Shown here: piece by piece, positions 1-14,266 of the stretch
Layout: each line of letters starts with the position of its first letter
How positions within the stretch are numbered: position 1 is the stretch's first letter
Source of the DNA: a virus
Taxonomy: Duplodnaviria > Heunggongvirae > Uroviricota > Caudoviricetes
IMG/VR virus record: IMGVR_UViG_2703718840_000012
Reading direction: 5' to 3' (one strand)
DNA: 14,266 bases
Position numbers and translations under genes: made by a program
The notes under the pieces: generated by a model
The model's database searches: none
The model's input: only the letters and a program-made list of their open reading frames with translations
Told to the model about the DNA's origin: nothing

Positions 1-93
1 GCGGAGTTATCCCGCGTAGAGATAGTCGAGCTGCTCAGTCAGGAGTCGGAAAAATTTCACAATATCGGATTGTCTCGCGGGGAGGTGCTTTGA
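1..93 (+). CDS. 3' end of an upstream phage early ORF (partial; 30 codons open from window edge to TGA at 91-93)
   Basis: Frame 1 is open from position 1 to a TGA at 91-93 that overlaps the next gene's ATG (93-95) by one base, as is typical of the packed P2 early operon. Not in the ORF track because it has no start codon in the window. Confidence 0.35.
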
Positions 94-392
94 TGTCCTG
101 TTCTCATTCAGTTGTATTACTGAATAACGCCTTAAAAATCGCCGTTATGAAAAATGGCGATTTGTCTCTTATTCAACTTTGTCTTGATAAAGAAAAACGC
201 GACATCACTGAATCTGTTATCGCGATTTATCAGAATGAATTAAACCTCCTGTCTGATGTGGTCAATTTACTTGTTAAACGCGCTGTATTCCACAAGCAAA
301 TTTCCTCAGTGGATGAACTGACAAAATTAACGACAGAACTTGCCAGTTATTGCGCTGATGTATCCAGGAAACTTAACGATAAAAGGAGCTGA
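93..392 (+). CDS. hypothetical phage early-operon protein
   Basis: ORF-track 90..392; the ATG at 93 is preceded by GGAGG (81-85) at 7-nt spacing, and the TTG at 90 is likely an artefact. Stop at 390-392 sits 2 nt before the next RBS/ATG. Position matches the small-ORF block between B and A in P2. Confidence 0.6.
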   Translation: MSCSHSVVLLNNALKIAVMKNGDLSLIQLCLDKEKRDITESVIAIYQNELNLLSDVVNLLVKRAVFHKQISSVDELTKLTTELASYCADVSRKLNDKRS

Positions 393-394
393 TA

Positions 395-619
395 ATGCCG
401 GATAACGTAGATTTTATTCAGGAACAACAGGCTGAATTACTGGAGCGCCAGATTAACGCGGCAAGGGTAAAACATTGCGGTGCTTCTGCGCTGGTTTGCG
501 AAGAGTGTGACGCGCCAATACCTGCTGCCCGTCGTGCGGCTTATCCGTCAGCCACGCGTTGTGTTTCCTGTCAGTCAGTCTTTGAAGCAAAAAACAAACA
601 TTACCGGAGAACGGCATGA
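395..619 (+). CDS. TraR/DksA-family C4-type zinc-finger protein
   Basis: Translation contains two CxxC pairs (CEEC ... CVSC) with the spacing of TraR/DksA C4 zinc fingers. AGGAG at 384-388 is 6 nt upstream of the ATG; the stop overlaps the next ATG (ATGA at 616-619). Confidence 0.8.
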   Translation: MPDNVDFIQEQQAELLERQINAARVKHCGASALVCEECDAPIPAARRAAYPSATRCVSCQSVFEAKNKHYRRTA

Positions 620-891
620 GTATTCGTATTGAAATTGGCGAACGTTATGTCGTTACCAGTGACAGCTTTCAGTTTATTCTCCACGAGAAAAAGAGAGCGG
701 AAAGCGGTAAAAACGCCGGTCAGGAATGGCTGTCGGTGGTTGGTTATTACCCGAAATTAAGCCAGCTCGTTTCCGGCCTGATGCATCACGATATTCTGAC
801 CGGAAGCGCAAAGTCTTTTGCTGATTTAAACGTGCAGGTTGAGCAACTCAGCAAGCGTTGTTCAGAGGCTTTTGGCTCATATGGCCGTTAA
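616..891 (+). CDS. hypothetical phage early-operon protein
   Basis: ATG at 616 with GGAGA at 604-608; the 3' end overlaps the gpA start at 881. Compact, overlapping organisation typical of a phage operon. Confidence 0.6.
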   Translation: MSIRIEIGERYVVTSDSFQFILHEKKRAESGKNAGQEWLSVVGYYPKLSQLVSGLMHHDILTGSAKSFADLNVQVEQLSKRCSEAFGSYGR

Positions 892-3157
892 AGCCTCCGG
901 GCGTTTTGTCCCTCCGTCAGCATTTGCCGCAGGCACCGGTAAGGCGTTTACCGGTGCTTATGCATGGAACGCGCCACGCGAGGCTGTCGGGCGCGAAAGA
1001 CCCCTTACACGTGACGAGATGCGTCAGGTGCAAGGTGTTTTATCCACGATTAACCGCCTGCCTTACTTTTTGCGCTCGCTGTTTACGTCACGCTATGACT
1101 ACATCCGGCGCAATAAAAGCCCGGTGCACGGGTTTTATTTTCTCACATCCACTTTTCAGCGTCGTTTATGGCCGCGCATTGAGCGTGTGAATCAGCGCCA
1201 TGAAATGAACACCGACGCGTCGTTGCTGTTTCTGGCAGAGCGTGACCATTATGCGCGTCTGCCGGGGATGAATGACAAGGAGCTGAAAAAGTTTGCCGCC
1301 CGTATCTCATCGCAGCTTTTCATGATGTATGAGGAACTCTGCGATGCCTGGGTGGATGCGCATGGCGAAAAAGAATCGCTGTTTACGGATGAGGCGCAGG
1401 CTCACCTCTATGGTCATGTTGCTGGTGCTGCACGTGCTTTCAATATTTCCCCGCTCTACTGGAAAAAATACCGTAAAGGGCAGATGACCAAGAGGCAGGC
1501 ATATTCTGCCATTGCCCGTCTGTTTAACGATGAGTGGTGGACCCATCAGCTTAAAGGCCAGCGTATGCGCTGGCATGAGGCGTTACTGATTGCTGTCGGG
1601 GAGGTCAATAAAGACCGTTCTCCTTATGCCAGTAAACATGCCATTCGTGATGTGCGTGCACGCCGCCAGGCAAATCTGGAATTTCTTAAATCGTGTGATC
1701 TCGAAAACAGGGAAACCGGCGAGCGCATCGACCTTATCAGTAAGGTGATGGGCAGTATTTCTAATCCTGAAATTCGCCGGATGGAGCTGATGAACACCAT
1801 TGCCGGTATTGAGCGTTACGCCGCAGCAGAGGGTGATGTGGGGATGTTTATCACGCTGACCGCGCCGTCAAAGTATCACCCGACACGTCAGGTCAGAAAA
1901 GGCGAAAGTAAAACCGTCCAGCTAAATCACGGCTGGAACGATGAGGCATTTAATCCAAAGGATGCGCAGCGTTATCTCTGCCGTATCTGGAGCCTGATGC
2001 GCACGGCATTCAAGGATAATGATTTACAGGTCTACGGTTTGCGTGTCGTCGAGCCACACCACGACGGAACGCCGCACTGGCATATGATGCTTTTTTGTAA
2101 TCCGCGCCAGCGTAACCAGATTATCGAAATCATGCGTCGCTATGCGCTCAAAGAGGATGGCGATGAAAGAGGAGCCGCGCGAAACCGTTTTCAGGCAAAA
2201 CACCTTAACCGGGGCGGTGCTGCGGGGTATATCGCGAAATACATCTCAAAAAACATCGACGGCTATGCACTGGATGGTCAGCTCGATAACGATACCGGCA
2301 GGCCGCTGAAAGACACTGCTGCGGCTGTTACCGCATGGGCGTCAACGTGGCGCATCCCGCAATTTAAAACGGTTGGTCTGCCAACAATGGGGGCTTACCG
2401 TGAACTACGCAAATTGCCGCGCGGCGTCAGCATTGCTGATGAGTTTGACGAGCGCGTCGAGGCTGCACGCGCCGCCGCAGACAGTGGTGATTTTGCGTTG
2501 TATATCAGCGCGCAGGGTGGGGCAAATGTCCCGCGCGATTGTCAGACTGTCAGAGTCGCCCGTAGCCCGTCGGATGACGTTAACGAGTACGAGGAAGAGG
2601 TCGAGAGGGTGGTCGGCATTTACGCGCCGCATCTCGGCGCGCGTCATATTCATATCACCAGAACGACGGACTGGCGCATTGTGCCGAAAGTTCCGGTCGT
2701 TGAGCCTTTGACTTTAAAAAGCGGCATCGCCGCGCCTCGGAGTCCTGTCAATAACTGTGGAAAGCTCACCGGTGGTGATACTTCGTTACCGGCTCCCACA
2801 CCTTCTGAGCACGCCGCAGCAGTGCTTAATCTGGTAGATGACGGTGTTATCGAATGGAATGACCAGGAGGTCGTGAGGGCGCTCAGAGGTGCATTAAAAC
2901 ACGGTCTGAGAAGACCAAACCGTCAGCAAAGAAACGGAAGCCCGTTAAAACCGCATGAAATAGCGCCATCGGCCAGACTGACCCGGTCGGAACGAATGCA
3001 AATTACCCGTATCCGCGTTGACCTTGCTCAGAACGGTATCAGGCCACAGCGATGGGAGCTTGAGGCGCTGGCGCGTGGCGCGACCGTAAATTATGACGGG
3101 GAAAAATTCACGTATCCGGTCGCTGATGAGTGGCCGGGATTCTCAACAAACATATAA
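881..3157 (+). CDS. A: P2-type replication initiation endonuclease gpA (rolling-circle initiator)
   Basis: ORF-track 839..3157 starts at a TTG; the ATG at 881 gives MAVKASGRFVPPSAFAAGTGK..., which I recognise as the P2 gpA N-terminus. Length (~758 aa) fits gpA and it contains the HWHMMLF block. Recognition is from memory, not a search. Confidence 0.9.
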   Translation: MAVKASGRFVPPSAFAAGTGKAFTGAYAWNAPREAVGRERPLTRDEMRQVQGVLSTINRLPYFLRSLFTSRYDYIRRNKSPVHGFYFLTSTFQRRLWPRIERVNQRHEMNTDASLLFLAERDHYARLPGMNDKELKKFAARISSQLFMMYEELCDAWVDAHGEKESLFTDEAQAHLYGHVAGAARAFNISPLYWKKYRKGQMTKRQAYSAIARLFNDEWWTHQLKGQRMRWHEALLIAVGEVNKDRSPYASKHAIRDVRARRQANLEFLKSCDLENRETGERIDLISKVMGSISNPEIRRMELMNTIAGIERYAAAEGDVGMFITLTAPSKYHPTRQVRKGESKTVQLNHGWNDEAFNPKDAQRYLCRIWSLMRTAFKDNDLQVYGLRVVEPHHDGTPHWHMMLFCNPRQRNQIIEIMRRYALKEDGDERGAARNRFQAKHLNRGGAAGYIAKYISKNIDGYALDGQLDNDTGRPLKDTAAAVTAWASTWRIPQFKTVGLPTMGAYRELRKLPRGVSIADEFDERVEAARAAADSGDFALYISAQGGANVPRDCQTVRVARSPSDDVNEYEEEVERVVGIYAPHLGARHIHITRTTDWRIVPKVPVVEPLTLKSGIAAPRSPVNNCGKLTGGDTSLPAPTPSEHAAAVLNLVDDGVIEWNDQEVVRALRGALKHGLRRPNRQQRNGSPLKPHEIAPSARLTRSERMQITRIRVDLAQNGIRPQRWELEALARGATVNYDGEKFTYPVADEWPGFSTNI

Positions 3158-3218
3158 AAATGATTGAAATGGTTGATTTTGCTTCCACTTGATGGTTGGT
3201 ATCAGCAACTGATGGATC

Positions 3219-3479
3219 ATGCGGAACTGCGTGGCGATCTTGCTTTGGAAGCATGTCATTATGACTAATGCATACATTACTAGCTATGCGTCCGGTTCCG
3301 CCATTGTACTCGTGCAAGAGTCTGCGGCTGATGGCTATTGTTTACAAATTATGGTCAAAGAGAATCTGACCCTCTACGAGTTGGTCGGAGGGACTGAGAT
3401 CGTCAGTGATAACTGCAGCCGTATGGGAGAAATCAATAATCCCAACCGTCCATATTTCTACCTTCACGCGTGCCCATAA
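3219..3479 (+). CDS. hypothetical small protein downstream of A (orf91-like position); start may be ATG 3261
   Basis: ORF-track ORF; no strong RBS at either candidate start. Composition is intermediate between the backbone and the AT-rich cargo. Confidence 0.3.
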   Translation: MRNCVAILLWKHVIMTNAYITSYASGSAIVLVQESAADGYCLQIMVKENLTLYELVGGTEIVSDNCSRMGEINNPNRPYFYLHACP

Positions 3480-3644
3480 TCTGTCACCACGTTGACCATA
3501 GAAAACCCCGTCGACGCTGAAACTCGCTTTCAGTGCTGGCGGGGGTGAACAACGAGCTTGCGAGGCGTTAGGGATGTCGAAATTTCATATGACTGTTCGC
3601 TTTAATGCTTAACGAAGTCATGTTGAGTTAATAACATTTTTTCG

Positions 3645-5189
3645 TTAAGCGCTGTGTTCCTTGTCGAATAAGTTCACTTCTTCTGGTGTAATATCATTAT
3701 CCATTTCTTCGAATGCATCTAAATCCACAATTTTTGTTTTTTTCAAAATTGATAGTATTTTCTGTTTGTTTTTACTTTTGGCTGAACCCGGAATCCACTC
3801 TACATCCCACAGGCCATCAATGGTAAATGTTTTTTTTCCCTTGAGTTCATCATTTATGCGTTGACATAGGGCTGTTTTGTAATCGCCTTCCCATTGTGTG
3901 TGTATCTTCCCTTGAACTCGTTGAAACCAAATATCTAACATTTCAGTATTTGGTTGTTTACCTAGTTTACAATGAAGTTGTTGTAACTTGCCAAATTTGA
4001 GTTCATCGTCGTCATAAAGGAAGGTCAAGAGTTTTGCGAAAATAGCCATTCCCACTGGGTAGGTGGTTGGGTTTTTAGCCATGATGCTTGAAATAATTCC
4101 AAGCATTGCATCTAGTTGATGCCCACTATTTGTGATCTTTTTCTTCCTAAATAATTTTCGCAAGAAATCATTTAAATATCTAACTGTAATTTTGGAGTTT
4201 TGATGTTTTAAAGAAAATAAATATATTGCATACAACATTTTCTGTAGGGAGTTGAACGACTTTTCTATAATATATTCTTTTTTTGCTGATTTAAGGGAGT
4301 GAAGAATGATGTCGTCATGTAGTTCTGTTTTTCTTGAGTTTAAATCAAGCCCAAACTCACCTAAGACCTCAACCAAACACTTTGAGATTTTGTCCAAATC
4401 ATCTTTACTGCTTGAAAATATTCGATAATCATCTCTGTAGCGAACTACTTTGTAATCCGTTATTTTTTGCTCTTCAGTTTTTTTTCTTAGCTGTAAATCA
4501 ATTTCGCCTAAAATTAATTCGGCAAATGTATCCATCAACGTACTACCCAATGGTATTCCGTTTGTCTGATTACTCATCATCATCTGGATATGAGTGTCAA
4601 TCAATCGTCCTGGGTTATTGTTATTTTCTTTCTTTTTGGCCTCTTCTTTTGAGATGAATACCCATTCAAAGCTATGAGTGTAAATAGAAGGGTAGAAGTT
4701 TGAAATATCTGTGCTGAACATGAACTCATACTCAAGAGCCAATGAAAGACTTTTTTGTTCAAAATCTTCCCACCAGTTTAAAACAGATGCAGCTACGTTT
4801 GAGGTGTTCTTTTTGCTCACTGGGGTACTTGAGCATAAAAAAAGATCATTAGACTCAAACTCTCTAAATTTATTCTTTATAGCCTTCCAGTTGGAAGGGG
4901 ATGTAATAAGTTTACAAAAATACACGTAGTATAGAGGATTAATTAGTGTTATTCGTCGCCAGCTATATAAGCCATCTTTGCTGACTAAAACCTCGTAATT
5001 TATATTCTTCCCCATCAATGACTTGGAGTCAGGTTGGAAGTTGATTTTACCTTCATCTATCGCGGAGTTGATTTCTTCAAGCAAGGAAGAAAAATCGACA
5101 TAACTGGGTAGCTCCAGAGTAGTGTATGAATCATGCTGCAGAAAATACTTAAGCGCTCTACCAGTAGTTAATTCATAAATCTTTTTCAT
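3645..5189 (-). CDS. reverse transcriptase, Abi/UG-like single-gene type with ~220-aa C-terminal extension
   Basis: Translation shows RT motifs in order: SWRRITLINP (motif 2), FSTDISNFYPSI (motif A, catalytic D), NGIPLGSTLMDTFAELIL (motif B), VVRYRDDYRIF (YxDD motif C), GLDLNSRKT (motif D/E). ATG at 5189 (MKKIYELT...) is preferred; the ORF-track start at 5315 is a TTG and the extension reads as Cys/His-rich junk running into the cos flank. Same position and orientation as old in P2. Confidence 0.8.
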   Translation of the reverse strand: MKKIYELTTGRALKYFLQHDSYTTLELPSYVDFSSLLEEINSAIDEGKINFQPDSKSLMGKNINYEVLVSKDGLYSWRRITLINPLYYVYFCKLITSPSNWKAIKNKFREFESNDLFLCSSTPVSKKNTSNVAASVLNWWEDFEQKSLSLALEYEFMFSTDISNFYPSIYTHSFEWVFISKEEAKKKENNNNPGRLIDTHIQMMMSNQTNGIPLGSTLMDTFAELILGEIDLQLRKKTEEQKITDYKVVRYRDDYRIFSSSKDDLDKISKCLVEVLGEFGLDLNSRKTELHDDIILHSLKSAKKEYIIEKSFNSLQKMLYAIYLFSLKHQNSKITVRYLNDFLRKLFRKKKITNSGHQLDAMLGIISSIMAKNPTTYPVGMAIFAKLLTFLYDDDELKFGKLQQLHCKLGKQPNTEMLDIWFQRVQGKIHTQWEGDYKTALCQRINDELKGKKTFTIDGLWDVEWIPGSAKSKNKQKILSILKKTKIVDLDAFEEMDNDITPEEVNLFDKEHSA

Positions 5190-5395
5190 AATTAGTGATT
5201 TCTTCTTAAGTTGCGCACAAATAACTACCTGTTTTCTATCATGATAACGATGCGAATGCGAGCAATTCAGGAAGTGCATTACTCTGCATCGAAGCGCACG
5301 CAAGTCAGAGAACAATAACTGCCTGGCGACATCAGGACTGGCGCGCTAGTTGAGTGGTCATGCAACTGCATTAAAACCGCCCCATGAAGCGGGCG

Positions 5396-5414
5396 GGCGA
5401 GGCGGGGAAAGCAC
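5396..5414. other. P2-type cos site (19-nt cohesive-end sequence GGCGAGGCGGGGAAAGCAC)
   Basis: Exact 19-nt string ggcgaggcggggaaagcac inside a GC-rich island between the two AT-rich RT genes. It matches the P2/186 cohesive-end sequence as I recall it, and sits where cos is expected, between the old-slot gene and Q. Confidence 0.65.
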
Positions 5415-5452
5415 TGCGCGCTAAACGATGTCGCTGGCTTGCAGTTACCCGG

Positions 5453-5481
5453 TTGAAATTCTTATTTTTTTGTTGCATTAT
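5453..5481 (+). promoter_or_regulatory. candidate sigma70 promoter for the RT2 leader/operon (TTGAAA-17 nt-CATTAT)
   Basis: -35 ttgaaa at 5453-5458, 17-nt spacer, -10 cattat at 5476-5481, immediately right of cos and about 250 nt upstream of the RT2 start. Sequence-only call. Confidence 0.25.
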
Positions 5482-5527
5482 TCTTAGCGCACCAGCGATT
5501 CGCTTGGTATGCGGCAGTCAACAACAT

Positions 5528-5722
5528 TAAATTGTCAGTTTTTGCTTTTACAAAAAAGCGTCCACTATGGACCTATCAGCGAGGCCCCACCGTCGTCAAC
5601 TACGATGGTGCCGTAGCCGACGACATTACGTACGGTCGAAAGATAGCAGAGGCTGTTGCTGACAATTGTTGATGTAAGCATCTCTGCTGTTCCACCCTTG
5701 AGTATGGGAAGACCGTACGTAA
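5528..5722 (+). ncRNA. candidate structured leader / retron-like ncRNA (msr-msd-like) upstream of RT2
   Basis: Nested and crossing inverted repeats: 9-bp aattgtcag (5530-5538) vs ctgacaatt (5659-5667), extendable to ~14 bp with a bulge; a two-tier hairpin at 5591-5622; a perfect 12-bp repeat ttacgtacggtc (5626-5637) vs gaccgtacgtaa (5711-5722) ending 18 nt before the RT2 ATG. Architecture is ncRNA -> RT -> effector as in retrons. Boundaries are approximate. Confidence 0.3.
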
Positions 5723-5739
5723 CTTTGAATTTGAATGGT

Positions 5740-6930
5740 ATGTTTATGGATAAATTTAAACCATACAGCAAATCCAATGCTCCTATCACAACACTTGAAA
5801 AGTTGTCAAAGGCTTTATCGATTTCTGTTGAAGAGCTTAAAGCTATTGCAGAATTACCATTAGATGAGAAATATACTCTAAAAGAAATTCCCAAAATTGA
5901 CGGAAGCAAACGGATTGTCTACTCCCTGCATCCTAAAATGAGATTATTACAGAGTAGAATTAATAAACGTATCTTTAAGGAATTGGTTGTTTTTCCTTCA
6001 TTTTTGTTTGGTTCAGTTCCCAGTAAAAATGATGTTTTAAATTCTAATGTCAAACGTGACTATGTTTCATGTGCAAAGGCTCATTGTGGAGCAAAAACAG
6101 TTCTCAAGGTGGATATAAGTAATTTTTTCGATAATATCCATAGAGATCTGGTTAGGAGCGTGTTTGAGGAGATATTGCATATTAAGGATGAGGCTCTTGA
6201 ATACTTGGTGGAAATATGTACTAAGGATGATTTTGTCGTACAGGGGGCCTTAACATCAAGCTATATAGCAACTTTGTGTTTATTCGCTGTTGAAGGGGAT
6301 GTGGTAAGACGTGCGCAGAGGAAAGGACTTGTTTATACGCGTTTGGTAGATGATATTACCGTGTCATCTAAAATAAGTAATTATGATTTTTCTCAAATGC
6401 AAAGCCATATAGAGAGGATGCTTTCTGAGCATGACTTGCCGATAAATAAGCGCAAAACTAAAATATTTCACTGTTCATCTGAACCTATAAAAGTACATGG
6501 TTTAAGAGTTGACTATGACTCACCTCGACTACCATCCGATGAAGTCAAAAGAATCAGGGCATCTATACATAATTTGAAATTACTGGCGGCAAAAAATAAC
6601 ACAAAAACAAGTGTTGCATACAGAAAAGAATTCAATAGATGTATGGGGAGAGTGAATAAGCTTGGCCGTGTTGCGCATGAAAAATATGAATCATTCAAGA
6701 AACAGTTGCAGGCAATAAAACCGATGCCATCTAAAAGAGATGTTGCTGTGATTGATGCAGCTATAAAAAGTTTAGAGTTGTCGTATTCGAAAGGTAATCA
6801 AAATAAACATTGGTATAAAAGAAAATATGATTTGACGAGATATAAGATGATTATTCTTACTCGCTCTGAATCATTTAAAGAAAAACTGGAGTGTTTTAAA
6901 TCTAGATTGGCATCTTTAAAACCATTATGA
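5740..6930 (+). CDS. retron-type reverse transcriptase (divergent catalytic motifs)
   Basis: Translation shows YTLKEIPKIDGSKRIVYSLHP (motifs 1-2), HCGAKTVLKVDISNFFDNI (motif A), VVQGALTSSYIATL (motif B), YTRLVDDI (motif C, both Asp present), INKRKTKI, then VHGLRVDY...VKRIRASIHNL, resembling the retron RT VTG/thumb region. Start is ambiguous among ATG 5704, 5740 and 5746, none with a strong SD; the ORF-track start 5656 is a TTG. Confidence 0.85.
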   Translation: MFMDKFKPYSKSNAPITTLEKLSKALSISVEELKAIAELPLDEKYTLKEIPKIDGSKRIVYSLHPKMRLLQSRINKRIFKELVVFPSFLFGSVPSKNDVLNSNVKRDYVSCAKAHCGAKTVLKVDISNFFDNIHRDLVRSVFEEILHIKDEALEYLVEICTKDDFVVQGALTSSYIATLCLFAVEGDVVRRAQRKGLVYTRLVDDITVSSKISNYDFSQMQSHIERMLSEHDLPINKRKTKIFHCSSEPIKVHGLRVDYDSPRLPSDEVKRIRASIHNLKLLAAKNNTKTSVAYRKEFNRCMGRVNKLGRVAHEKYESFKKQLQAIKPMPSKRDVAVIDAAIKSLELSYSKGNQNKHWYKRKYDLTRYKMIILTRSESFKEKLECFKSRLASLKPL

Positions 6931-7634
6931 ATGCAAATATTAGACTTCTCAAATATATTGTCGGTGTGTCGTCAGCTCTTTTTTTGATTTTTTCGCTAAT
7001 TTCTCTTTTTGAAACTATTCAGAATGAAAAGCTATATGAGCGTGATATATGCTTCGATAGCCAGTGCTTAAAATTTTTTGCGGAAAAAACATCTGGTATA
7101 GTAATGTATTTTCAGGCGTTTGGATGGCTTATAACAACTTTTGTTACCGTTTTTGGTGTTATGATTGCTTTGATGACATATAACGCTGGAGTTAAAAATA
7201 ATAATAATAGTAATTACACTAGTCATCTGACGATGTTTAGAGAATTTGCAAGTGCTGAGTTAACTAAAAGAAGTAGCATCTATCCAGAGAAAGTTAATTT
7301 TTTTAGATGGTATAGGGTTATGTTCCCTGAAGCGCAAGGCGGTGATATATCTGTTTCGAGAGATTATCTAGAAATAATATCTAGAATCAAATGTGTTATT
7401 GAGGAAGCCAATGCACATATTACAGAGGAAAATAAAGACTATAAATATAAAACTCATCAGAGAAAAATGATGGCTGTTTTGGATGAAATCGGTATATCGA
7501 TTAGTAATGGGCCCAAAAATATTTTTATTGAGGTTGAGAGTCAAATTTTGGATTATATCGATACTATTAATTTGTCATTTTGTCACTCCTCATCAGTGAT
7601 AGAATTAAGTAGAGTAAAAAGGAAGTATATATAG
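6927..7634 (+). CDS. two-transmembrane-helix membrane protein with ~150-aa soluble C-terminal domain; candidate effector of the RT2 module
   Basis: ATG overlaps the RT2 stop (ATGA at 6927-6930), indicating translational coupling. Two hydrophobic stretches (YIVGVSSALFLIFSLISLF and IVMYFQAFGWLITTFVTVFGVMIALMTY) near the N-terminus; same AT-rich composition as RT2. Confidence 0.8.
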   Translation: MNANIRLLKYIVGVSSALFLIFSLISLFETIQNEKLYERDICFDSQCLKFFAEKTSGIVMYFQAFGWLITTFVTVFGVMIALMTYNAGVKNNNNSNYTSHLTMFREFASAELTKRSSIYPEKVNFFRWYRVMFPEAQGGDISVSRDYLEIISRIKCVIEEANAHITEENKDYKYKTHQRKMMAVLDEIGISISNGPKNIFIEVESQILDYIDTINLSFCHSSSVIELSRVKRKYI

Positions 7635-7636
7635 TT

Positions 7637-7672
7637 AAGTTGGCGGGATTGCATTCCGCCAACTTTATATAT
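7637..7672. terminator. GC-rich hairpin with T-rich tail between the cargo operon and the 3' end of Q; candidate bidirectional terminator
   Basis: aagttggcgg (7637-7646) pairs with ccgccaactt (7656-7665) around a 9-nt loop, followed by tttatatattt. Lies 3 nt after the 2TM stop and 5 nt before the Q stop on the other strand. Confidence 0.45.
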
Positions 7673-7676
7673 TTAC

Positions 7677-8696
7677 TTATAAGTTATAATCAAGGAATTT
7701 TATGACTTCCATATCTAACCATTCATTTATTGACTTTATTCTCTCCTGTAATGGAATGAGTTCATTGCGGACAAAGACCTTTGCCACTTTTTCAATATCT
7801 CCTAGTGACCCGACATTCTCCGGCTTACCGCCCATCAACTGAAAGGGGATGCGGTGTGCGTCCAGGAGATCTGCGGCGCTGACTTTTTTGATATTAAAAA
7901 AATCGTCCTTCGTCGCCACTTCACTGAGGGGGATAATTTTAATGCCGTCGGCTTTCCCCTGTGGGGCATAGAGAAACAGGTTTTTAAAGTTGTTGCGGCC
8001 TTTTGACTTAACCATGTTTTCGCGAAGCATTTCGATATCGTTGCGGTCCTGCACGGCATCGGTGACGTACATGATGTATCCGGCATGAGCGCCGTTTTCG
8101 TAATACTTGCGGCGGAACAGCGTGGCCGACTCATTCAGCCAGGCAGAGTTAAGGGCGCTGAGATATTCCGGCAGGCCGTACAGCTCCTGATTAATATCAG
8201 GCTCCAGCAGGTGAAACACGGAGCCGGGCGCGAAGGCTGTCGGCTCGTTGAAGGACGGCACCCACCAGTAAACATCCTCCTCCACGCCACGACGGGTATA
8301 TTTGGCCGGTGAGGTTTCCAGTCTGATGACCTTACCGGTGGTGCTGTAACGCTTTTCCAGAAACGCATTACCGAACACCAGAAAATCCAGCACAAAGCGG
8401 CTGAAATCCTGCTGGGACAGCCACGGGTGCGGGATAAACGTTGAAGCCAGAATATTGCGTTTAACGTAAATCGGTGAGCTGTGATGCACGGCAGCACGCA
8501 GGCTTTTTGCCAGACCGGTAAAGCTGACCGGTGGCTCATACCATCTGCCGTTACTGATGCACTCGACGTAATCCAGAATATCACGGCGGTCGAGTACCGG
8601 CACCGGCTCACCAAAGGTGAATGCCTCCATTTTCGGGGCGCTGGCAGTCATTGTTTTCACCGCTGGCTGCGGTGTTTTCCCTTTTTTCTTACTCAT
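7677..8696 (-). CDS. Q: P2-type capsid portal protein gpQ
   Basis: 339-aa ORF (P2 gpQ is similar in size), GGAG RBS 9 nt upstream, ATG overlapping the stop of the upstream terminase ORF (ATGA at 8693-8696), cos-proximal and on the leftward strand as in P2. Confidence 0.88.
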   Translation of the reverse strand: MSKKKGKTPQPAVKTMTASAPKMEAFTFGEPVPVLDRRDILDYVECISNGRWYEPPVSFTGLAKSLRAAVHHSSPIYVKRNILASTFIPHPWLSQQDFSRFVLDFLVFGNAFLEKRYSTTGKVIRLETSPAKYTRRGVEEDVYWWVPSFNEPTAFAPGSVFHLLEPDINQELYGLPEYLSALNSAWLNESATLFRRKYYENGAHAGYIMYVTDAVQDRNDIEMLRENMVKSKGRNNFKNLFLYAPQGKADGIKIIPLSEVATKDDFFNIKKVSAADLLDAHRIPFQLMGGKPENVGSLGDIEKVAKVFVRNELIPLQERIKSINEWLDMEVIKFLDYNL

Positions 8697-9607
8697 CAGT
8701 AAAACTCCAGAATGGTGGATGTCAGCGGGGTGCTGATACCGGCGGTGAGTGGCTCATTTAACAGGGCGTGCATGGTCGCCCAGGCGAGATCGGCGTGGCT
8801 GGCTTCCTCGCTGCGGCTGGCCTCATAGGTGGCGCTGCGTCCGCTGCTGGTCATGGTCTTGCGGATAGCCATAAACGAGCTGGTGATGTCGGTGGCGCTG
8901 ACGTCATATTCCAGACAGCCACGGCGGATAACGTCTTTTGCCTTGAGCACCATTGCGGTTTTCATTTCCGGCGTGTAGCGGATATCGCGCGCGGCGGGAT
9001 AGAACGAGCGCACGAGCTGGAACACGCCGACACCGAGGCCGGTGGCATCAATCCCGATGTATTCAACGTTATATTTTTCGGTGAGTTTGCGGATGGATTC
9101 CGCCTGGGTGGCAAAGTCCATGCCTTTCCACTGGTGACGCTCAAGTATTCTGAATTTGCCACCGGCCACCACCGGCGGTGCCAGTACCACGCATCCGGCG
9201 CTGTCGCCACGGTGTGACGGGTCGTAACCAATCCATACCGGGCGGGAGCCGAACGGATTTGCGGCAAACGGCGCATAGTCTTCCCATTCTTCCAGCGTGT
9301 CGACCATGCAACGTTGCAGCTCCTCGAACGGGAACACCGACGCCTTGTCGTCAACAAATTCACACATGAACAGGTTTTTAAAATCGTCGGCGCTGTTTTC
9401 ACGTTTGAGCTGCTCAATGTCGAACAGTGTGCAGCCACCTTTCAGGGCGTCCTCAATGGTGACAATCTGCCGCCACTGGCCGTCCGCACAGAGAAGCCCA
9501 CCGGCAAGGGCGTTATGACTGACGTCGATTTCCACGCGTTCGGCGGCGCTGGCGCGTCCCCGGTTGAACAGTTCACCCGACCAGAACGGGTACCCTGGAT
9601 AATCCGG
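8696..9607 (-). pseudogene. P: terminase ATPase/nuclease subunit gpP, C-terminal ~300 aa only (5' half deleted)
   Basis: Reading frame is continuous with the Q overlap and is open upstream of the GTG at 9535 back to a TAA at 9608-9610, with no plausible start or N-terminal ATPase region. About 300 aa are present against the ~590 expected for gpP. Confidence 0.8.
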
Positions 9608-9846
9608 TTAAACGTGGTGAACAGGTTATCGAACAGGTCACGCTGATGAAACCCAATGCCGGGACGCTGCGCGGTGTCAGTCTGGCTGCGGTCGCAAACT
9701 CCGAAGTCGATGCACTGATTAAAGTGCTGCCGCGCATGACGGCACCGATGCTGACCGAGCAGGAGGTCGCCGCGCTGGAACTGCCTGACCTTGTGGCGCT
9801 GGCCGGTAAGGTGGTCGGTTTTTTGTCGCCGAACTCGGTGCAGTGA
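9568..9846 (+). pseudogene. E: tail assembly chaperone gpE, 5'-truncated at the deletion junction (first ATG at 9646)
   Basis: Frame open from 9568. Ends ...GKVVGFLSPNSVQ with the heptamer T TTT TTG (9819-9825) in the correct phase for the -1 shift that makes E+E' in P2-like phages. Abuts the P fragment on the opposite strand. Confidence 0.6.
9819..9825 (+). other. programmed -1 ribosomal frameshift slippery heptamer (T_TTT_TTG) of the E/E' pair
   Basis: X_XXY_YYZ pattern in phase with the E frame (codons GGT TTT TTG); the -1 frame stays open for ~55 codons to a TGA at 9990-9992. Confidence 0.55.
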
Positions 9847-9898
9847 CGTTTCCGAAAAATCTCTCGGTCGATGACCTGATGGCGGATGTGGCAGTGAT

Positions 9899-10675
9899 AT
9901 TTCACTGGCCGCCATCACCGGCATCAATGCCATCATCGCGGCAGCAGGCGCAATGGGGGCAATCTTCACGACGGTTGGCAGTGCTGTTATGACCGCCATC
10001 GGAGCGATTAGCTGGCCGGTTGTGGCCGTGGTGGCCGCCATTGTCGCCGGGGCGTTGCTTATCCGTAAATACTGGGAGCCTGTCAGCGCATTCTTTGGCG
10101 GTGTGGTGGAAGGGCTGAAAGCGGCATTTGCGCCGGTGGGGGAACTGTTCACGCCACTTAAGCCGGTGTTTGACTGGCTGGGCGAAAAGTTACAGGCCGC
10201 GTGGCAGTGGTTTAAAAACCTGATTGCCCCGGTTAAAGCCACCCAGGACACCCTGAACCGTTGCCGTGACACGGGCGTCATGTTCGGGCAGGCACTGGCT
10301 GACGCGTTGATGCTGCCGCTTAATGCGTTCAACAAACTGCGCAGTGGTATTGACTGGGTACTGGAAAAACTCGGTGTTATCAACAAAGAGTCAGACACAC
10401 TTGACCAGACCGCCGCCAGAACTCATGCCGCCACGTATGGCACCGGTGGTTATATTCCGGCGACCAGCTCTTATGCAGGCTATCAGGCTTATCAGCCGGT
10501 TACGGCACCGGCTGGCCGCTCTTATGTGGACCAGAGTAAAAACGAATATCACATCAGTCTGACGGGCGGTACTGCGCCGGGGACTCAGCTCGACCGCCAG
10601 TTACAGGATGCGCTCGAAAAATATGAGCGGGATAAACGTGCGCGCGCCCGTGCCAGCATGATGCATGACGGTTAA
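9899..10675 (+). pseudogene. T: tail tape measure protein gpT, C-terminal ~240-260 aa only
   Basis: Frame open from 9899, first ATG at 9953, stop at 10673-10675 directly before the U RBS. Hydrophobic segment plus a C-terminal ...ERDKRARARASMMHDG tail typical of P2-like tape measures; far shorter than the ~800 aa expected. Confidence 0.75.
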
Positions 10676-10689
10676 GGAGGTGACGAAAA

Positions 10690-11169
10690 ATGATGCTCGC
10701 GTTAGGTATGTTTGTTTTTATGCGCCAGACGCTGCCACACCAGACCATGCAGCGTGAATCAGATTATCGCTGGCCGTCAAATTCCCGTATCGGTAAACGG
10801 GATGCCTTTCAGTTTCTCGGTGTGGGTGAGGAAAACATTACGCTTGCCGGCGTGCTTTATCCCGAACTGACCGGCGGCAAGCTGACGATGACCACGCTCA
10901 GACTGATGGCAGAGGAAGGCCGGGCGTGGCCGTTGCTGGATGGCACCGGCATGATTTACGGCATGTATGTCATCAGCAGGGTGAATGAAACAGGGAGTAT
11001 TTTCTTTGCAGACGGCACACCCCGGAAAATTGATTTTACGCTGTCGCTCACCCGCGTTGATGAATCACTGGCCGCGCTTTATGGCGATATCGGTAAACAG
11101 GCGGAATCGCTCATCGGTAAGGCTGGCAGTATGGCGACTAAATTCACGGGTATGACGGGGGCGGGATAA
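10690..11169 (+). CDS. U: P2-type tail protein gpU
   Basis: 159-aa ORF beginning MMLALGMFVFMRQTLPHQ..., AAGGAGG RBS at 10673-10679; stop overlaps the D start by one base (TAATG). Confidence 0.9.
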   Translation: MMLALGMFVFMRQTLPHQTMQRESDYRWPSNSRIGKRDAFQFLGVGEENITLAGVLYPELTGGKLTMTTLRLMAEEGRAWPLLDGTGMIYGMYVISRVNETGSIFFADGTPRKIDFTLSLTRVDESLAALYGDIGKQAESLIGKAGSMATKFTGMTGAG

Positions 11170-12332
11170 TGCTGGATGCGCTGACATTTGATGCAGGCAG
11201 TACGCTGACGCCGGATTACATGCTGATGCTCGACAGCAGGGATATTACCGGCAATATCAGCGACCGTCTGATGAGCATGACCCTGACGGATAACCGGGGC
11301 TTTGAGGCTGACCAGCTTGATATTGAACTGAACGATGCCGACGGGCAGGTCGGGCTGCCGGTTCGTGGCGCTGTCCTGACGGTGTATATCGGCTGGAAAG
11401 GTTTTGCCCTGGTATGCAAAGGGAAATTCACCGTTGATGAGGTTGAACACCGGGGCGCGCCGGATGTGGTTACCATCCGCGCCCGGAGTGCAGATTTTCG
11501 CGGGACGCTCAATTCCCGCCGTGAAGGCTCATGGCATGACACCACGCTCGGTGCGATTGTTGAGGCGATAGCCTCCCGTAACAAGCTGGAAGCCAGTGTC
11601 GCGCCGTCACTGGACGGAATTAAAATCCCGCACATCGACCAGTCGCAGGAGTCTGATGCGAAATTCCTGACCCGCCTTGCTGAACGCAACGGCGGTGAGG
11701 TGTCGGTAAAAATGGGAAAACTGTTGTTTCTCAAAGCGGGGCAGGGGGTGACTGCCAGCGGTAAAAAAATCCCGCAGATTACCATCACCCGCAGCGACGG
11801 TGACCGTCATCATTTTGCGATTGCTGACCGTGGAGCTTACACCGGCGTAACGGCAAAGTGGTTACACACCAAAGACCCGAAGCCGCAAAAGCAGAAGGTA
11901 AAACTGAAACGCAAAAAGAAAGAAAAACACCTGCGCGCACTGGAGCACCCGAAAGCGAAACCGGTCACGCAGAAGAAAGCGCCAAAAGTACCGGAAGCGC
12001 GCGAAGGTGAATACATGGCCGGTGAAGCTGACAACGTTTTTGCCCTGACCACGGTATATGCCACAAAAGCGCAGGCTATGCGCGCCGCTCAGGCGAAGTG
12101 GGACAAACTGCAACGGGGCGTTGCGGAGTTCTCCATCAGCCTGGCTACCGGTCGGGCAGATATTTACACGGAAACACCGGTCAAAGTGTCAGGCTTTAAG
12201 CGCGTCATAGACGAGCAGGACTGGACAATCACTAAGGTGACACATTTTCTGAATAATAGCGGCTTCACGACGTCCTTGGAGCTTGAGGTCAGGCTTTCTG
12301 ATGTGGAGTACGAAACAGAAGATGATGAGTGA
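11169..12332 (+). CDS. D: P2-type tail protein gpD
   Basis: 387-aa ORF in the U-D-ogr order with a lysine-rich KPQKQKVKLKRKKKEK segment; recognised as the gpD family (yegZ in E. coli K-12 is a fragment of this gene). Confidence 0.9.
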   Translation: MLDALTFDAGSTLTPDYMLMLDSRDITGNISDRLMSMTLTDNRGFEADQLDIELNDADGQVGLPVRGAVLTVYIGWKGFALVCKGKFTVDEVEHRGAPDVVTIRARSADFRGTLNSRREGSWHDTTLGAIVEAIASRNKLEASVAPSLDGIKIPHIDQSQESDAKFLTRLAERNGGEVSVKMGKLLFLKAGQGVTASGKKIPQITITRSDGDRHHFAIADRGAYTGVTAKWLHTKDPKPQKQKVKLKRKKKEKHLRALEHPKAKPVTQKKAPKVPEAREGEYMAGEADNVFALTTVYATKAQAMRAAQAKWDKLQRGVAEFSISLATGRADIYTETPVKVSGFKRVIDEQDWTITKVTHFLNNSGFTTSLELEVRLSDVEYETEDDE

Positions 12333-12350
12333 TGTTTTTATTTTATCTGT

Positions 12351-12379
12351 TTGTTTTATAAGGATAAATTAACTAAAAT
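12351..12379 (+). promoter_or_regulatory. candidate ogr promoter (TTGTTT-17 nt-TAAAAT)
   Basis: -35 ttgttt 12351-12356, 17-nt spacer, -10 taaaat 12374-12379, about 35 nt upstream of the ogr ATG, in an AT-rich gap after D. Confidence 0.3.
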
Positions 12380-12413
12380 GGCACCATCAACAAAATCGGA
12401 AGAGGTGCTCGCG

Positions 12414-12632
12414 ATGTTTCATTGTCCTTTATGCCAGCATGCCGCACATGCGCGTACAAGCCGCTATATCACTGACACGACAAAAGAGCGTTATCACCAG
12501 TGTCAGAACGTGAATTGCAGCGCCACGTTTATCACTTATGAGTCGGTACAGCGATACATCGTGAAGCCGGGAGAAGTCCACGCCGTAAGACCGCACCCGT
12601 TGCCGTCAGGGCAGCAAATTATGTGGATGTAA
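12414..12632 (+). CDS. ogr: Ogr late-gene transcription activator (C4 zinc finger)
   Basis: 72-aa product MFHCPLCQHAAHARTSRYITDTTKERYHQCQNVNCSATF... with CxxC-N22-CxxxxC cysteines, recognised as P2 Ogr (ogrK in K-12). ORF-track start 12351 is a TTG; the ATG at 12414 has a GGAAGAGGTG RBS. Confidence 0.9.
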   Translation: MFHCPLCQHAAHARTSRYITDTTKERYHQCQNVNCSATFITYESVQRYIVKPGEVHAVRPHPLPSGQQIMWM

Positions 12633-12644
12633 TTACAAACAGGA

Positions 12645-12670
12645 AGCCCCTCAGTCGAGGGGCTTTTTTG
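12645..12670 (+). terminator. rho-independent terminator downstream of ogr
   Basis: Perfect 9-bp stem aagcccctc / gaggggctt with 5-nt loop agtcg, followed by TTTTTT (12665-12670). Confidence 0.75.
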
Positions 12671-12733
12671 TCGATGTGGTCAATGTGTGGACGTGACCAG
12701 AAATAAATCCTTTTATTTCATTGTATTACGCGT

Positions 12734-12760
12734 AAAAAATAAGCCCGTGTAAGGGAGATT
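12734..12760. other. P2 attachment-site core (attR), 27 bp AAAAAATAAGCCCGTGTAAGGGAGATT
   Basis: Exact 27-nt string at 12734-12760, about 100 nt after ogr and 145 nt before host yegQ, matching the P2 att core as I recall it. The phage-host junction is therefore here. Confidence 0.65.
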
Positions 12761-12904
12761 ACACAGGCTAAGGAGGTGGTTCCTGGTACAGCTAGCATTT
12801 TATGGGTTATGTTTTTCAGCGAAACGGATGATAACCTTAATAAATGCAGCTGTATGTGATCGGTTTCTAAGAATTTTCCATCCGGGAAAAATAATCGAAA
12901 TTAA

Positions 12905-14266
12905 TCACTTACCGTGTGGGTTACGCGTGGTTTCCCCGGAGAAATTACGCATCAGCAGAGCGTAATTGAGCTCAAGATCCTGCGGGACCGGGAGCCACAC
13001 AGTATAACCATCGCCTGGTGCGACCGGCATCGCTTCACCTATGGCGTTTTCCATGTGCTCAAGGGTAAAGTTAATGTTGCCTTGCGGCGTCATCAGCTCA
13101 AGGCTGTCGCCAACGGAGAATTTATTTTTCACCGCTACCGCCGCGAGGTCCCCCTTGCGCTCACCGGTAAACTCACCAACAAACTGCTGGCGGTCAGAAA
13201 CTGAATAACCGTATTCGTAGTTCTGATAATCGTCGTGAGTATGACGACGCAGGAAACCTTCGGTATAGCCACGATGCGCCAGACCTTCCAGAGTTTCCAG
13301 CAGGCTGGTATCGAACGGTTTGCCCGCAGCGGCGTCATCGATAGCTTTACGGTAAACCTGTGCGGTGCGTGCGCAATAGTAGAAAGATTTAGTACGGCCT
13401 TCGATTTTCAGCGAATGCACGCCCATTTTGGTCAGGCGTTCTACATGGGCGATGGCGCGCAGATCTTTCGAGTTCATGATGTAAGTGCCGTGCTCATCTT
13501 CAAACGCGGTCATATACTCGCCCGGACGCTGGGCTTCTTCGATCATAAACACTTTGTCGGTTGGCGCGCCGATACCCAGCGTCGGCTCAACATTTTGCAC
13601 CGGAATCGGCTCGTACTTGTGTACGATGTTGCCAACGTCATCTTCTTTCCCTTCCTGGACGTTGTACTCCCAGCGGCAGGCGTTGGTGCAGGTACCCTGG
13701 TTCGGATCGCGCTTGTTGATATAGCCAGAGAGCAGGCAGCGACCGGAGTAGGCCATGCACAGTGCGCCGTGAACGAAGATCTCGATCTCCATATCCGGCA
13801 CCTGATTGCGGATCTCTTCAATCTCTTCCAGCGACAGCTCGCGAGAGAGGATCACGCGGGTCAGGCCCATTTGCTGCCAGAATTTCACCGTCGCCCAGTT
13901 TACGGCGTTAGCCTGCACCGAGAGGTGGATCGGCATTTCAGGGAAGTGCTCACGCACCAGCATAATCAGCCCTGGATCGGACATAATCAGCGCATCCGGC
14001 CCCATTTCCACCACCGGTTTCAGGTCACGGATAAAGGTTTTCAGCTTGGCGTTGTGCGGTGCAATGTTGACCACGACATAAAACTTTTTCCCCAGCGCGT
14101 GGGCTTCATTGATGCCGAGCTGAAGATTTTCGTGGTTGAATTCGTTGTTGCGCACACGCAGGGAGTAACGCGGCTGGCCCGCATAAACAGCATCTGCGCC
14201 ATAAGCGAAAGCGTAACGCATATTTTTCAGCGTTCCCGCCGGGGAAAGGAGTTCCGGTTTAAACAT
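12905..14266 (-). CDS. yegQ: host peptidase U32-family protein YegQ (TrhP, tRNA hydroxylation)
   Basis: 453-aa ORF MFKPELLSPAGTLKNMRYAFAYGADAVYAG... recognised as E. coli YegQ. The ATG is the last triplet of the window (14264-14266 on the minus strand), so the CDS is complete but its promoter is outside. Confidence 0.92.
   Translation of the reverse strand: MFKPELLSPAGTLKNMRYAFAYGADAVYAGQPRYSLRVRNNEFNHENLQLGINEAHALGKKFYVVVNIAPHNAKLKTFIRDLKPVVEMGPDALIMSDPGLIMLVREHFPEMPIHLSVQANAVNWATVKFWQQMGLTRVILSRELSLEEIEEIRNQVPDMEIEIFVHGALCMAYSGRCLLSGYINKRDPNQGTCTNACRWEYNVQEGKEDDVGNIVHKYEPIPVQNVEPTLGIGAPTDKVFMIEEAQRPGEYMTAFEDEHGTYIMNSKDLRAIAHVERLTKMGVHSLKIEGRTKSFYYCARTAQVYRKAIDDAAAGKPFDTSLLETLEGLAHRGYTEGFLRRHTHDDYQNYEYGYSVSDRQQFVGEFTGERKGDLAAVAVKNKFSVGDSLELMTPQGNINFTLEHMENAIGEAMPVAPGDGYTVWLPVPQDLELNYALLMRNFSGETTRNPHGK

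Follow-up and report, generated by a model that had tools for sequence, protein, structure and literature searches.

Abi-P2 and Retron-Eco6 genes on the two sides of cos in the gpA-gpQ hotspot of a defective P2-like prophage: an analysis from sequence

Introduction

The Abi-P2 genes of the P2-like prophages P2-EC58 (ORF544) and P2-EC30 (orf570) are said to have been described by Odegrip et al. in 2006. The present paper is concerned with a stretch of 14,266 nucleotides of viral DNA (IMG/VR record IMGVR_UViG_2703718840_000012), the whole of which is called the window hereafter, where a gene of this kind lies on one side of the phage cohesive-end site, cos, and the genes of a retron, Retron-Eco6 (Ec48), on the other. 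It was reported by Figiel et al. 2022 (PMC9508834) that the Abi-P2 proteins of P2-EC30 and P2-EC58 are located in the same variable region, that resistance to phage T5 is conferred by orf570 of P2-EC30, and that Abi-P2 is a trimer carrying out a template-independent DNA synthesis that is protein-primed on Tyr61. A Y(R/V)DD box and the location in an AT-rich variable region of P2-like phages have been used as the criteria for Abi-P2 (PMC8632793; for the location also PMC9508834).

A type IV retron is defined by a reverse transcriptase (RT) together with a two-transmembrane (2TM) protein that is encoded just downstream of, or overlapping, the RT gene (PMC7736814). For Retron-Eco6 it was found that phage escape mutants lose their inhibitors of RecBCD, and the retron is thus thought to guard RecBCD and to activate its membrane effector (PMC8632793); moreover, Gam alone has been reported to trigger it (bioRxiv 10.1101/2025.10.22.683967). 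Its RT-DNA has a length of 45 nt by sequencing versus the 48 nt that were first reported, with the termination being dependent on RNase H1 (PMC8989520).

As for the place where such genes reside, the interval between gpA and gpQ was described by Rousset et al. 2022 (PMC9122126) as a hotspot adjoining cos; its 18,150 loci showed 1,650 arrangements, and two or more systems per locus were common. Their Table S5B lists both 'RT-Abi-P2', at 184 loci and with the allele of the window, and a 'Type IV retron' with the identical 2TM sequence. According to Dodd and Egan 1996, as cited in PMC6868368, the retrons Ec67 and Ec86 replaced the DNA between cos and the packaging-gene terminator in a 186-related prophage.

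A reading made from the letters of the window alone (hereafter the sequence-only reading) had proposed that positions 3480-7676 form an anti-phage defence island with two divergent RT genes on the two sides of cos. Here, we compare this interval with the known systems. Consistent with the hotspot definition, the window has variable cargo between the conserved gpA and gpQ, with cos inside, and the interval is almost certainly the known gpA-gpQ defence hotspot carrying two independent, characterised RT-based abortive-infection systems, one on each side of cos. It should be noted that every component, the location and the exact combination are already known; what we establish are the identity, intactness and boundaries of the parts, a conserved fold of the retron non-coding RNA (ncRNA) and the independent assortment of the cargo across cos.

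Results

Abi-P2 to the left of cos

The minus-strand gene to the left of cos (Table 1) is identified from its similarities as Abi-P2, in the allele of ORF544 of P2-EC58, and would be a single-gene abortive-infection system. Its product matches the PADLOC AbiP2 profile with an E-value of 4.1e-160 over profile positions 4-487 of 489, which is about 370 bits over the next PADLOC family, Drt6 (3e-47). It is also matched by the crystal structure of Abi-P2, 7R08 (Figiel et al. 2022), with an E-value of 8e-260 over chain residues 27-540, including the Abi-specific C-terminal helical domain, and it is 99.2% identical to ORF544 of P2-EC58 (a putative RT) and 75% identical to the RT of P2-EC30. Assignments of the protein to DRT4, DRT6 or AbiK were considered and rejected, those profiles lying at least 370 bits below AbiP2, with NCBIfam Drt4 reaching 121 bits versus a cutoff of 450.

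The functional residues are in place: motif A is TDISNFY at residue 161, the YRDD box is intact at residues 251-254, and the priming tyrosine is kept, with PAY61INF of the 7R08 chain being aligned with PSY30VDF of the window (Y30). While the mechanical open reading frame (ORF) reaches 5315, the ATG at 5189 is the start used by pro147, by RefSeq and in the exact-sequence look-up, and the sequence is an exact match to a widespread protein. The gene is placed in the AT-rich variable region between A and cos. It corresponds in gene and in locus to the systems of P2-EC58 and P2-EC30, standing on the minus strand to the left of cos in the place of old/tin. P2-EC58 has, in addition, the adjacent ORF85 in common with the window, and there is no substantive difference between the two; the allele of P2-EC30, by contrast, is only 75% identical to that of the window, and it is the EC30 allele that is the T5-excluding one.

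Table 1. Positions of the features discussed in the text, in window coordinates.
Feature	Coordinates	Strand	Evidence or remark
Left cargo block	3149..5366	.	replaces P2 orf91-tin-old, between gene A end and cos core
Small ORF (ORF85 of P2-EC58)	3261..3479	+	72 aa; longest ORF from 3219
Abi-P2 gene, 514 aa	3645..5189	-	PADLOC AbiP2 profile, 7R08, P2-EC58 identity
P2-type cos core	5367..5422	.	blastn to P2, 98.2% over 56 bp
Promoter-like site	5453..5481	+	TTGAAA, 17-nt spacer, CATTAT; consensus scan
Retron Ec48 ncRNA (msr-msd) with conserved 3' extension	5519..5722	+	inverted repeats, fold, covariation
Helix B	5530-5538 with 5659-5667	+	preferred a1/a2 stem; predicted branching G5538
msr hairpins (three)	5544-5559, 5560-5572, 5589-5609	+	ncRNA fold
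Predicted msd template	~5611-5658	+	helix B model
Helix A	5626-5637 with 5711-5722	+	~72 nt between arms; ends ~24 nt before RT start
Hairpin H	5642-5652 with 5681-5691	+	ncRNA fold; apical loop holds helix B 3' arm
Small hairpin	5695-5708	+	ncRNA fold
Retron Ec48 (Retron-Eco6) RT, 394 aa	5746..6930	+	PADLOC RT_IV, Pfam RVT_1
Retron Ec48 two-transmembrane effector, 235 aa	6927..7634	+	TM48_ECOLX identity, NCBIfam, PADLOC
13-bp stem-loop	7637..7665	.	between convergent 2TM and Q genes; terminator-like scan
Portal gene Q	7677..8696	-	Pfam Phage_portal; right boundary of hotspot

Retron-Eco6 to the right of cos

To the right of cos, the genes correspond to a complete type IV retron, Retron-Eco6 (Ec48). 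The RT matches PADLOC RT_IV with an E-value of 2.4e-176 (584.6 bits, positions 2-385 of 386), the next family being RT_V with 209.8 bits, which assigns it to the retron lineage, clade 3 / type IV. Its motif A is VDISNFF and the aspartates of its motif C are intact as LVDD. The usual NAXXH, VTG and YXDD are replaced in it by CAKAH, VHG and LVDD, and the same three oddities were reported for RT-Eco6 by Simon et al. 2019 (PMC6868368). The exact RT sequence is present in public Escherichia coli genomes. The 2TM effector is residue-for-residue identical to Swiss-Prot TM48_ECOLX (Retron Ec48 transmembrane protein); it reaches 226.7 bits with the NCBIfam equivalog retron_Ec48_2TM (cutoff 65) and an E-value of 4.1e-85 with PADLOC 2TM_IV, and is hydrophobic in two segments, around residues 7-31 and 62-86. 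The start codon of the effector gene and the stop codon of the RT gene overlap (ATGA, 6927-6930).

The order of ncRNA, RT and 2TM is the same as in Retron-Eco6 (Mao et al. 1997; Millman et al. 2020; Mestre et al. 2020), and no difference from it was detected, with the reference RT WP_097505494.1 not being compared directly. The retron at 5423-7676, including the ncRNA, is 100% identical to that of phage pro147. All three cargo ORFs (Abi-P2, RT and 2TM) are full length. A minus-strand ORF of 114 aa at 5565-5909 was discarded as spurious; it overlaps the ncRNA and the beginning of the RT gene. Promoter-like sites in the region are not more numerous than in the shuffled expectation, and it is position alone that favours the one in Table 1, from which we infer a transcript start near 5488.

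These results bear out what the sequence-only reading had supposed about the proteins. Both match Pfam RVT_1, with 41.6 bits for the left RT and 109 bits for the right one (cutoff 29.6), both keep their catalytic aspartates (YRDD and LVDD), and both have DISNF in motif A. The common DISNF gives no special relationship, however, since the lineages are Abi/UG for the one and retron for the other. The matches of the cargo proteins to RT-family and defence profiles in Pfam, PADLOC and NCBIfam, with the scores given above, and the hotspot of Rousset et al. 2022 are likewise in accord with the A-to-Q defence island that had been proposed.

Boundaries of the cargo and its composition

In blastn against P2 (NC_001895), the homology stops at 3148, comes back only at 5367-5422 (cos) and is then present from 7738. 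The left cargo is thus 3149-5366 and the right cargo 5423-7737, and both blocks are insertions or replacements relative to P2. The left one replaces orf91-tin-old, so that, as had been read from the letters, a minus-strand RT gene stands where P2 has old. The right one takes the place of P2 positions 28-262 (235 bp): from cosL to the stop codon of Q there are only 167 bp in P2, versus 2.26 kb in the window, which agrees with the claim of an RT and membrane-protein operon between cos and Q.

The G+C content of the backbone is 0.515 at 1-3148 and 0.553 in the Q/P part (7738-9592), versus 0.349 for the coding sequence of Abi-P2, 0.346 for that of the retron RT and 0.315 for that of the 2TM protein. 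The drop across the blocks flanking cos that had been estimated by eye is therefore real. The content is 0.363 over the interval 3480-7676 as a whole and 0.38 over the left block.

By contrast, three statements of the sequence-only reading have to be revised. Firstly, the cargo does not start at 3480: sequence unlike P2 sets in at 3149, where gene A ends, and takes in the small ORF of Table 1. Secondly, what had been called a conserved GC-rich cos island has merely 56 bp of P2 homology, 5367-5422 being the only P2-homologous stretch between A and Q; the moderately GC-rich region of about 5250-5720 beyond these 56 bp is the upstream region of Abi-P2 and the retron ncRNA. Thirdly, cargo on the Q side of cos had been regarded as the less expected part, whereas, on the account cited above, retrons Ec67 and Ec86 have been placed there since 1996, and the hotspot of Rousset et al. 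spans cos and lists the same type IV retron. In the Ec67 and Ec86 prophages, too, the retron replaces the short DNA from cos to the terminator, about 180 bp there versus 235 bp in the window. The difference is in the retrons, a type I-C RT-Toprim fusion and a type II-A3 system with an NDT-like effector there, a type IV one with a 2TM effector here. With P2 old/tin and the gpA-gpQ hotspot in general, the window shares the locus and the role as exchangeable anti-phage cargo beside cos; P2 itself carries other proteins and, unlike the window, has cargo only on the A side.

Beyond the right boundary that had been placed at 7676, the last 20 codons of Q (7677-7737) also differ from P2, as does the terminator tQ. 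As P2 homology resumes inside Q, at 7738, and as tQ of P2 falls within the exchanged 235 bp, these codons and tQ have been exchanged with the cargo, and the 20 codons travel with the retron cassette. The 13-bp stem-loop between the convergent 2TM and Q genes is likely a terminator standing in for tQ of P2.

The cos core itself contains the cohesive-end 19-mer GGCGAGGCGGGGAAAGCAC at 5396-5414 as an exact match (0 chance matches expected), and about 72 bp at 5351-5422 are common to 2192 E. coli genomes. Directly left of the cohesive-end sequence, at 5377-5396 on the minus strand, there is a GC-rich stem-loop followed by TTTT, which is kept in P2. It may be a terminator-like element pointing away from cos or, alternatively, part of the terminase recognition site.

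At the other end of the left block, the small ORF, which is convergent with the Abi-P2 gene, encodes exactly CAJ43156.1, a hypothetical protein of P2-EC58 (ORF85 in AM157368). It matches PHROG 13272 (unknown function) with an E-value of 1.9e-54, and no match was found in Pfam, PADLOC or NCBIfam. A segment of roughly 70 bp (3503-3571), located between this ORF and the stop codon of Abi-P2, is found with 88-93% identity beside unrelated cargo, e.g. a SIR2 gene, in other E. coli genomes. It may serve the hotspot as a common joint or terminator.

Independent assortment of the two sides

We then consider whether the two RTs form one cooperative system, in which the common DISNF and the co-occurrence would reflect a functional dependence, with, e.g., one enzyme supplying or controlling the other. 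In the set of 5426 complete E. coli genomes, 57 carry the retron cassette, always with at least 99% identity, 64 carry the Abi-P2 block with at least 99% identity, and 42 carry the two together. The co-occurrence is thus far above chance, 42 of the 57 retron genomes carrying the Abi-P2 allele of the window when each system is found at only about 1% of the P2 hotspot loci. However, since all the copies are at least 99% identical, shared descent of one prophage lineage explains the linkage, and it is as shared descent that the frequent pairing is best read. Moreover, the retron is also found with other neighbours, in strain PSS-11 with an Abi-P2 allele of 75% identity and in strain TUM1226 with a DUF7380 gene, from which it follows that the two sides of cos exchange their cargo independently; in about 22 genomes the Abi-P2 block of the window occurs without the retron. 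The RT genes are placed divergently with cos between them and belong to different lineages, and according to the literature each family defends when cloned alone (PMC9508834, PMC8632793). A single cooperative two-RT system is therefore extremely improbable and is rejected in favour of two systems that assort independently.

Decay is seen in some related copies. In strain DCE7 the Abi-P2 gene is shortened and is separated from A by an IS5 (NZ_CP090611, 4732-7767), in ATCC 43896 the 2TM gene is shortened (NZ_CP024278, 6683-7213), and two other strains have frameshifted Q genes.

The retron ncRNA

The fold of the ncRNA upstream of the RT gene has a z-score of -4.95. For its delimitation we used the DNA upstream of the RT gene in 53 loci encoding RT relatives from other species. 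Helices A and B (Table 1) recur upstream of type IV RT genes with unrelated sequences. In a MAFFT alignment of ten loci, compensatory pairs are present at 8 of the 12 pairs of helix A, 8 of the 11 of hairpin H and 7 of the 9 of helix B. With a covariance model that was built without helix B, 46 of 54 sources give one full-length match immediately upstream of the RT gene; the window is one of them, with a score of 177.5 bits. In the covariance alignment, helix A is 96% paired, with all its pairs compensatory (12/12), and H is 87-91% paired; helix B, to which the model was not fitted, is 60-73% paired, again with all pairs compensatory (9/9). The window holds an intact member of a conserved RNA family of about 200 nt. 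It is noted that type IV ncRNAs share a pseudoknotted fold, in which the helix that closes off the msr hairpins involves the loop of a hairpin lying downstream.

Which of the two helices is the a1/a2 stem determines where the multicopy single-stranded DNA (msDNA) would be copied from. We consider that the stem is probably helix B, with the branching G predicted at G5538 and the msd at about 5611-5658. This preference has four grounds. The 5' arm of helix B ends in AG, the usual context of the branching G, which is invariant in the close set and has the G in nearly all the others. The branch point is followed by three msr hairpins and then by the template, which is the canonical retron order. 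A 48-nt template starting from 5658 ends at 5611, i.e., at the base of hairpin 3 and the invariant GUAG (5613-5616). Finally, the numbering of the retron census starts at the first base of a1, as calibrated on Eco1, where positions 93;136 are a base pair, and the census positions 130;136 of Eco6 fit the pair 5648/5654 if a1 starts at 5519, the start of the extended helix B.

The other assignment, that the perfect 12-bp helix A is a1/a2, with G5638 as the branching G, the msDNA copied from 5710 down to about 5663 and the upstream hairpins forming a 5' domain tethered by helix B, is clearly less likely, though it keeps a real chance. Helix A is the strongest and best-conserved helix, it is followed by an unpaired G in the window and in many homologues, and its 3' arm ends 24 nt ahead of the RT start; in addition, a DNA of 45-48 nt would stop within the 3' arm of helix B, and hairpin H is the sole long stem-loop. 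However, the G following helix A varies, being A or U in some loci, while the AG closing the 5' arm of helix B is invariant in the close set; the msd would follow the branch point with no msr hairpin in between, a departure from all characterised retrons; and the census numbering of Eco6 cannot fit an a1 start at 5626. Helix A, the first choice for a1/a2, was thus downgraded after the comparative analysis and the census calibration and is kept as a rival. The two assignments differ in the predicted 5' end of the RT-DNA, which is CAACAGCC with helix B as a1/a2 (template 5658) and TTCCCATAC with helix A (template 5710). The DNA folds of the candidate 48-nt msDNAs are all weak, with z-scores from -0.5 to -1.3, and do not discriminate between them. 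The invariant GUAG as the branch site, or hairpin 3 as the msd, was also considered and rejected, because no complementary a2 exists.

With helix B taken as a1/a2, the msd template of type IV retrons would be held in helices A (12 bp) and H (11 bp) with the approximately 55 nt downstream of a2, which are in the 5' leader of the RT-effector mRNA, and a1/a2 would form a pseudoknot with the loop of H. Reverse transcription, with the template then being removed by RNase H1, would free the leader, and msDNA synthesis could feed back on the translation or stability of the RT/2TM message. We regard this feedback as rather doubtful; a loose parallel to it is the msDNA-dependent derepression that has been reported in type VI retrons, a sister group. 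In the helix B model, the pairing of the template with the leader of the RT mRNA by helices A and H is the one feature without a match in the literature examined, and the pseudoknotted template-leader architecture may already be implicit in the published consensus structures of type IV.

The carrier prophage

The window is a P2-like prophage of the pro147 type. Its positions 1-9592 are 99% identical to Escherichia phage pro147 (NC_028896 / KR073660), which has the same two cargos around cos and in whose RefSeq record a 'retron Ec48 family effector membrane protein' is already annotated; the difference is that pro147 is a complete phage of 32.7 kb. In blastn, 1-3148 correspond to P2 27154-30301 (orf81 through gene A), and 7738-9592 to P2 263-2117, which covers Q and the 3' portion of P. 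A part of E is found at 9591-9917, and 9905-12760 take in the end of T followed by U, D, ogr and the attP core. Relative to P2, about 17.3 kb from P to E and 1.75 kb inside T have been lost, and because of these losses the prophage is classed as defective.

Two junctions lie within 9585-9920. The first connects P, at P2 position 2117, with E, at 19450, the matches overlapping by 2 bp; at the second, in T, P2 19776 is joined to 21526 with an overlap of 13 bp. Together the two deletions remove nearly all the head, lysis and tail genes. The combination of these two exact junctions is found in no complete E. coli genome of the collection, and a similar terminase/tape-measure fusion is present in several E. 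coli genomes. At the right end, the attP core homology stops at 12760, abutting yegQ. Over 12222-14266, an identity of 98.9% is shared with the D-remnant/ogrK/yegQ stretch of strain ET791, where ogr and a gpD remnant also lie beside yegQ, but the prophage is deleted differently, with Q fused to the tape-measure gene.

Another observation concerns the numbering of chromosomes. In NZ_AP027694 and NZ_CP135719, with the annotations checked, base 1 is the first base of P2 gpA (replication endonuclease). The retron stands at the identical offset (4543-6796) in many other RefSeq chromosomes (e.g. NZ_CP091839, NZ_CP086662 and NZ_CP116480), suggesting the same start. Presumably these starts are artefacts that arise when gpA is taken for a replication initiator by automatic start-fixing tools.

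Discussion

From the literature, the action of the two systems would be as follows. Abi-P2 would be a constitutively made, trimeric RT-like enzyme without a thumb domain, which would prime on its own tyrosine and make random-sequence DNA without a template, with the infected cell dying. On the other side of cos, one transcript would carry the ncRNA, the RT gene and the 2TM gene, and the RT would use the 2'-OH of the branching G beside the a1/a2 stem and copy the msd into an msDNA of about 45-48 nt. Upon infection, phage inhibitors of RecBCD (lambda Gam, T7 gp5.9) would bring about, as reported elsewhere, the activation of the 2TM effector, after which the membranes would be permeabilised and the infection would abort.

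Several points weigh against taking the interval as two working systems of this kind. The biochemical activities and the phage-defence phenotypes are those that we infer from the literature. As far as the papers show, the defence by Abi-P2 concerns the 75%-identical EC30 allele and not the EC58 allele. For the retron, it was found by Palka et al. that the Eco6 accessory protein alone is not toxic (PMC8989520), so that the guard model makes the mechanism of the effector look more settled than it is. A search of 3000-8000 against Rfam at a permissive E-value matched no family, for which reason the ncRNA was delimited by comparing loci, and the coordinates of the branching G and of the msd are predictions. 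In addition, with the carrier prophage being defective, expression in the host is not assured, and the AT-rich cargo may be silenced.

The last point leads to the alternative that the cargo is present and gives no working defence in its host, being a silent or decaying relic in a dead prophage. In line with this, the prophage is without the segments from P to E and within T, the related copies described above have decayed (the IS5 by a shortened Abi-P2 gene, the shortened 2TM gene and the frameshifted Q genes), and H-NS silencing of AT-rich immunity loci is mentioned in the abstract of a 2026 preprint. By contrast, none of the three cargo ORFs of the window is shortened, its 2TM protein has the reference sequence, and its RT and Abi-P2 match widespread proteins exactly; its ncRNA does not differ from that of pro147, and the catalytic and priming residues are intact. 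Moreover, the retention of the cargo with the loss of the structural genes would be the pattern expected from selection for the cargo. We therefore consider a relic quite unlikely, and retain the reading of two intact and independent defence systems.

Conclusions

The locus brings little that is new for biology, and it is a clean textbook case of the cos-proximal hotspot of P2 with two RT-based abortive-infection systems. It is also confirmed by it that such defence islands can be picked out by a reading of the raw sequence. Of modest use are the observations that the sub-loci on either side of cos exchange their cargo independently, that the cassette is intact in a prophage without structural genes, and that the Ec48 cassette supplies its own 3' end of Q and terminator. 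Finally, we note that the residual interest is in the pseudoknotted architecture of the type IV ncRNA, which bears on the length of the msDNA and on the expression of the RT and the effector.

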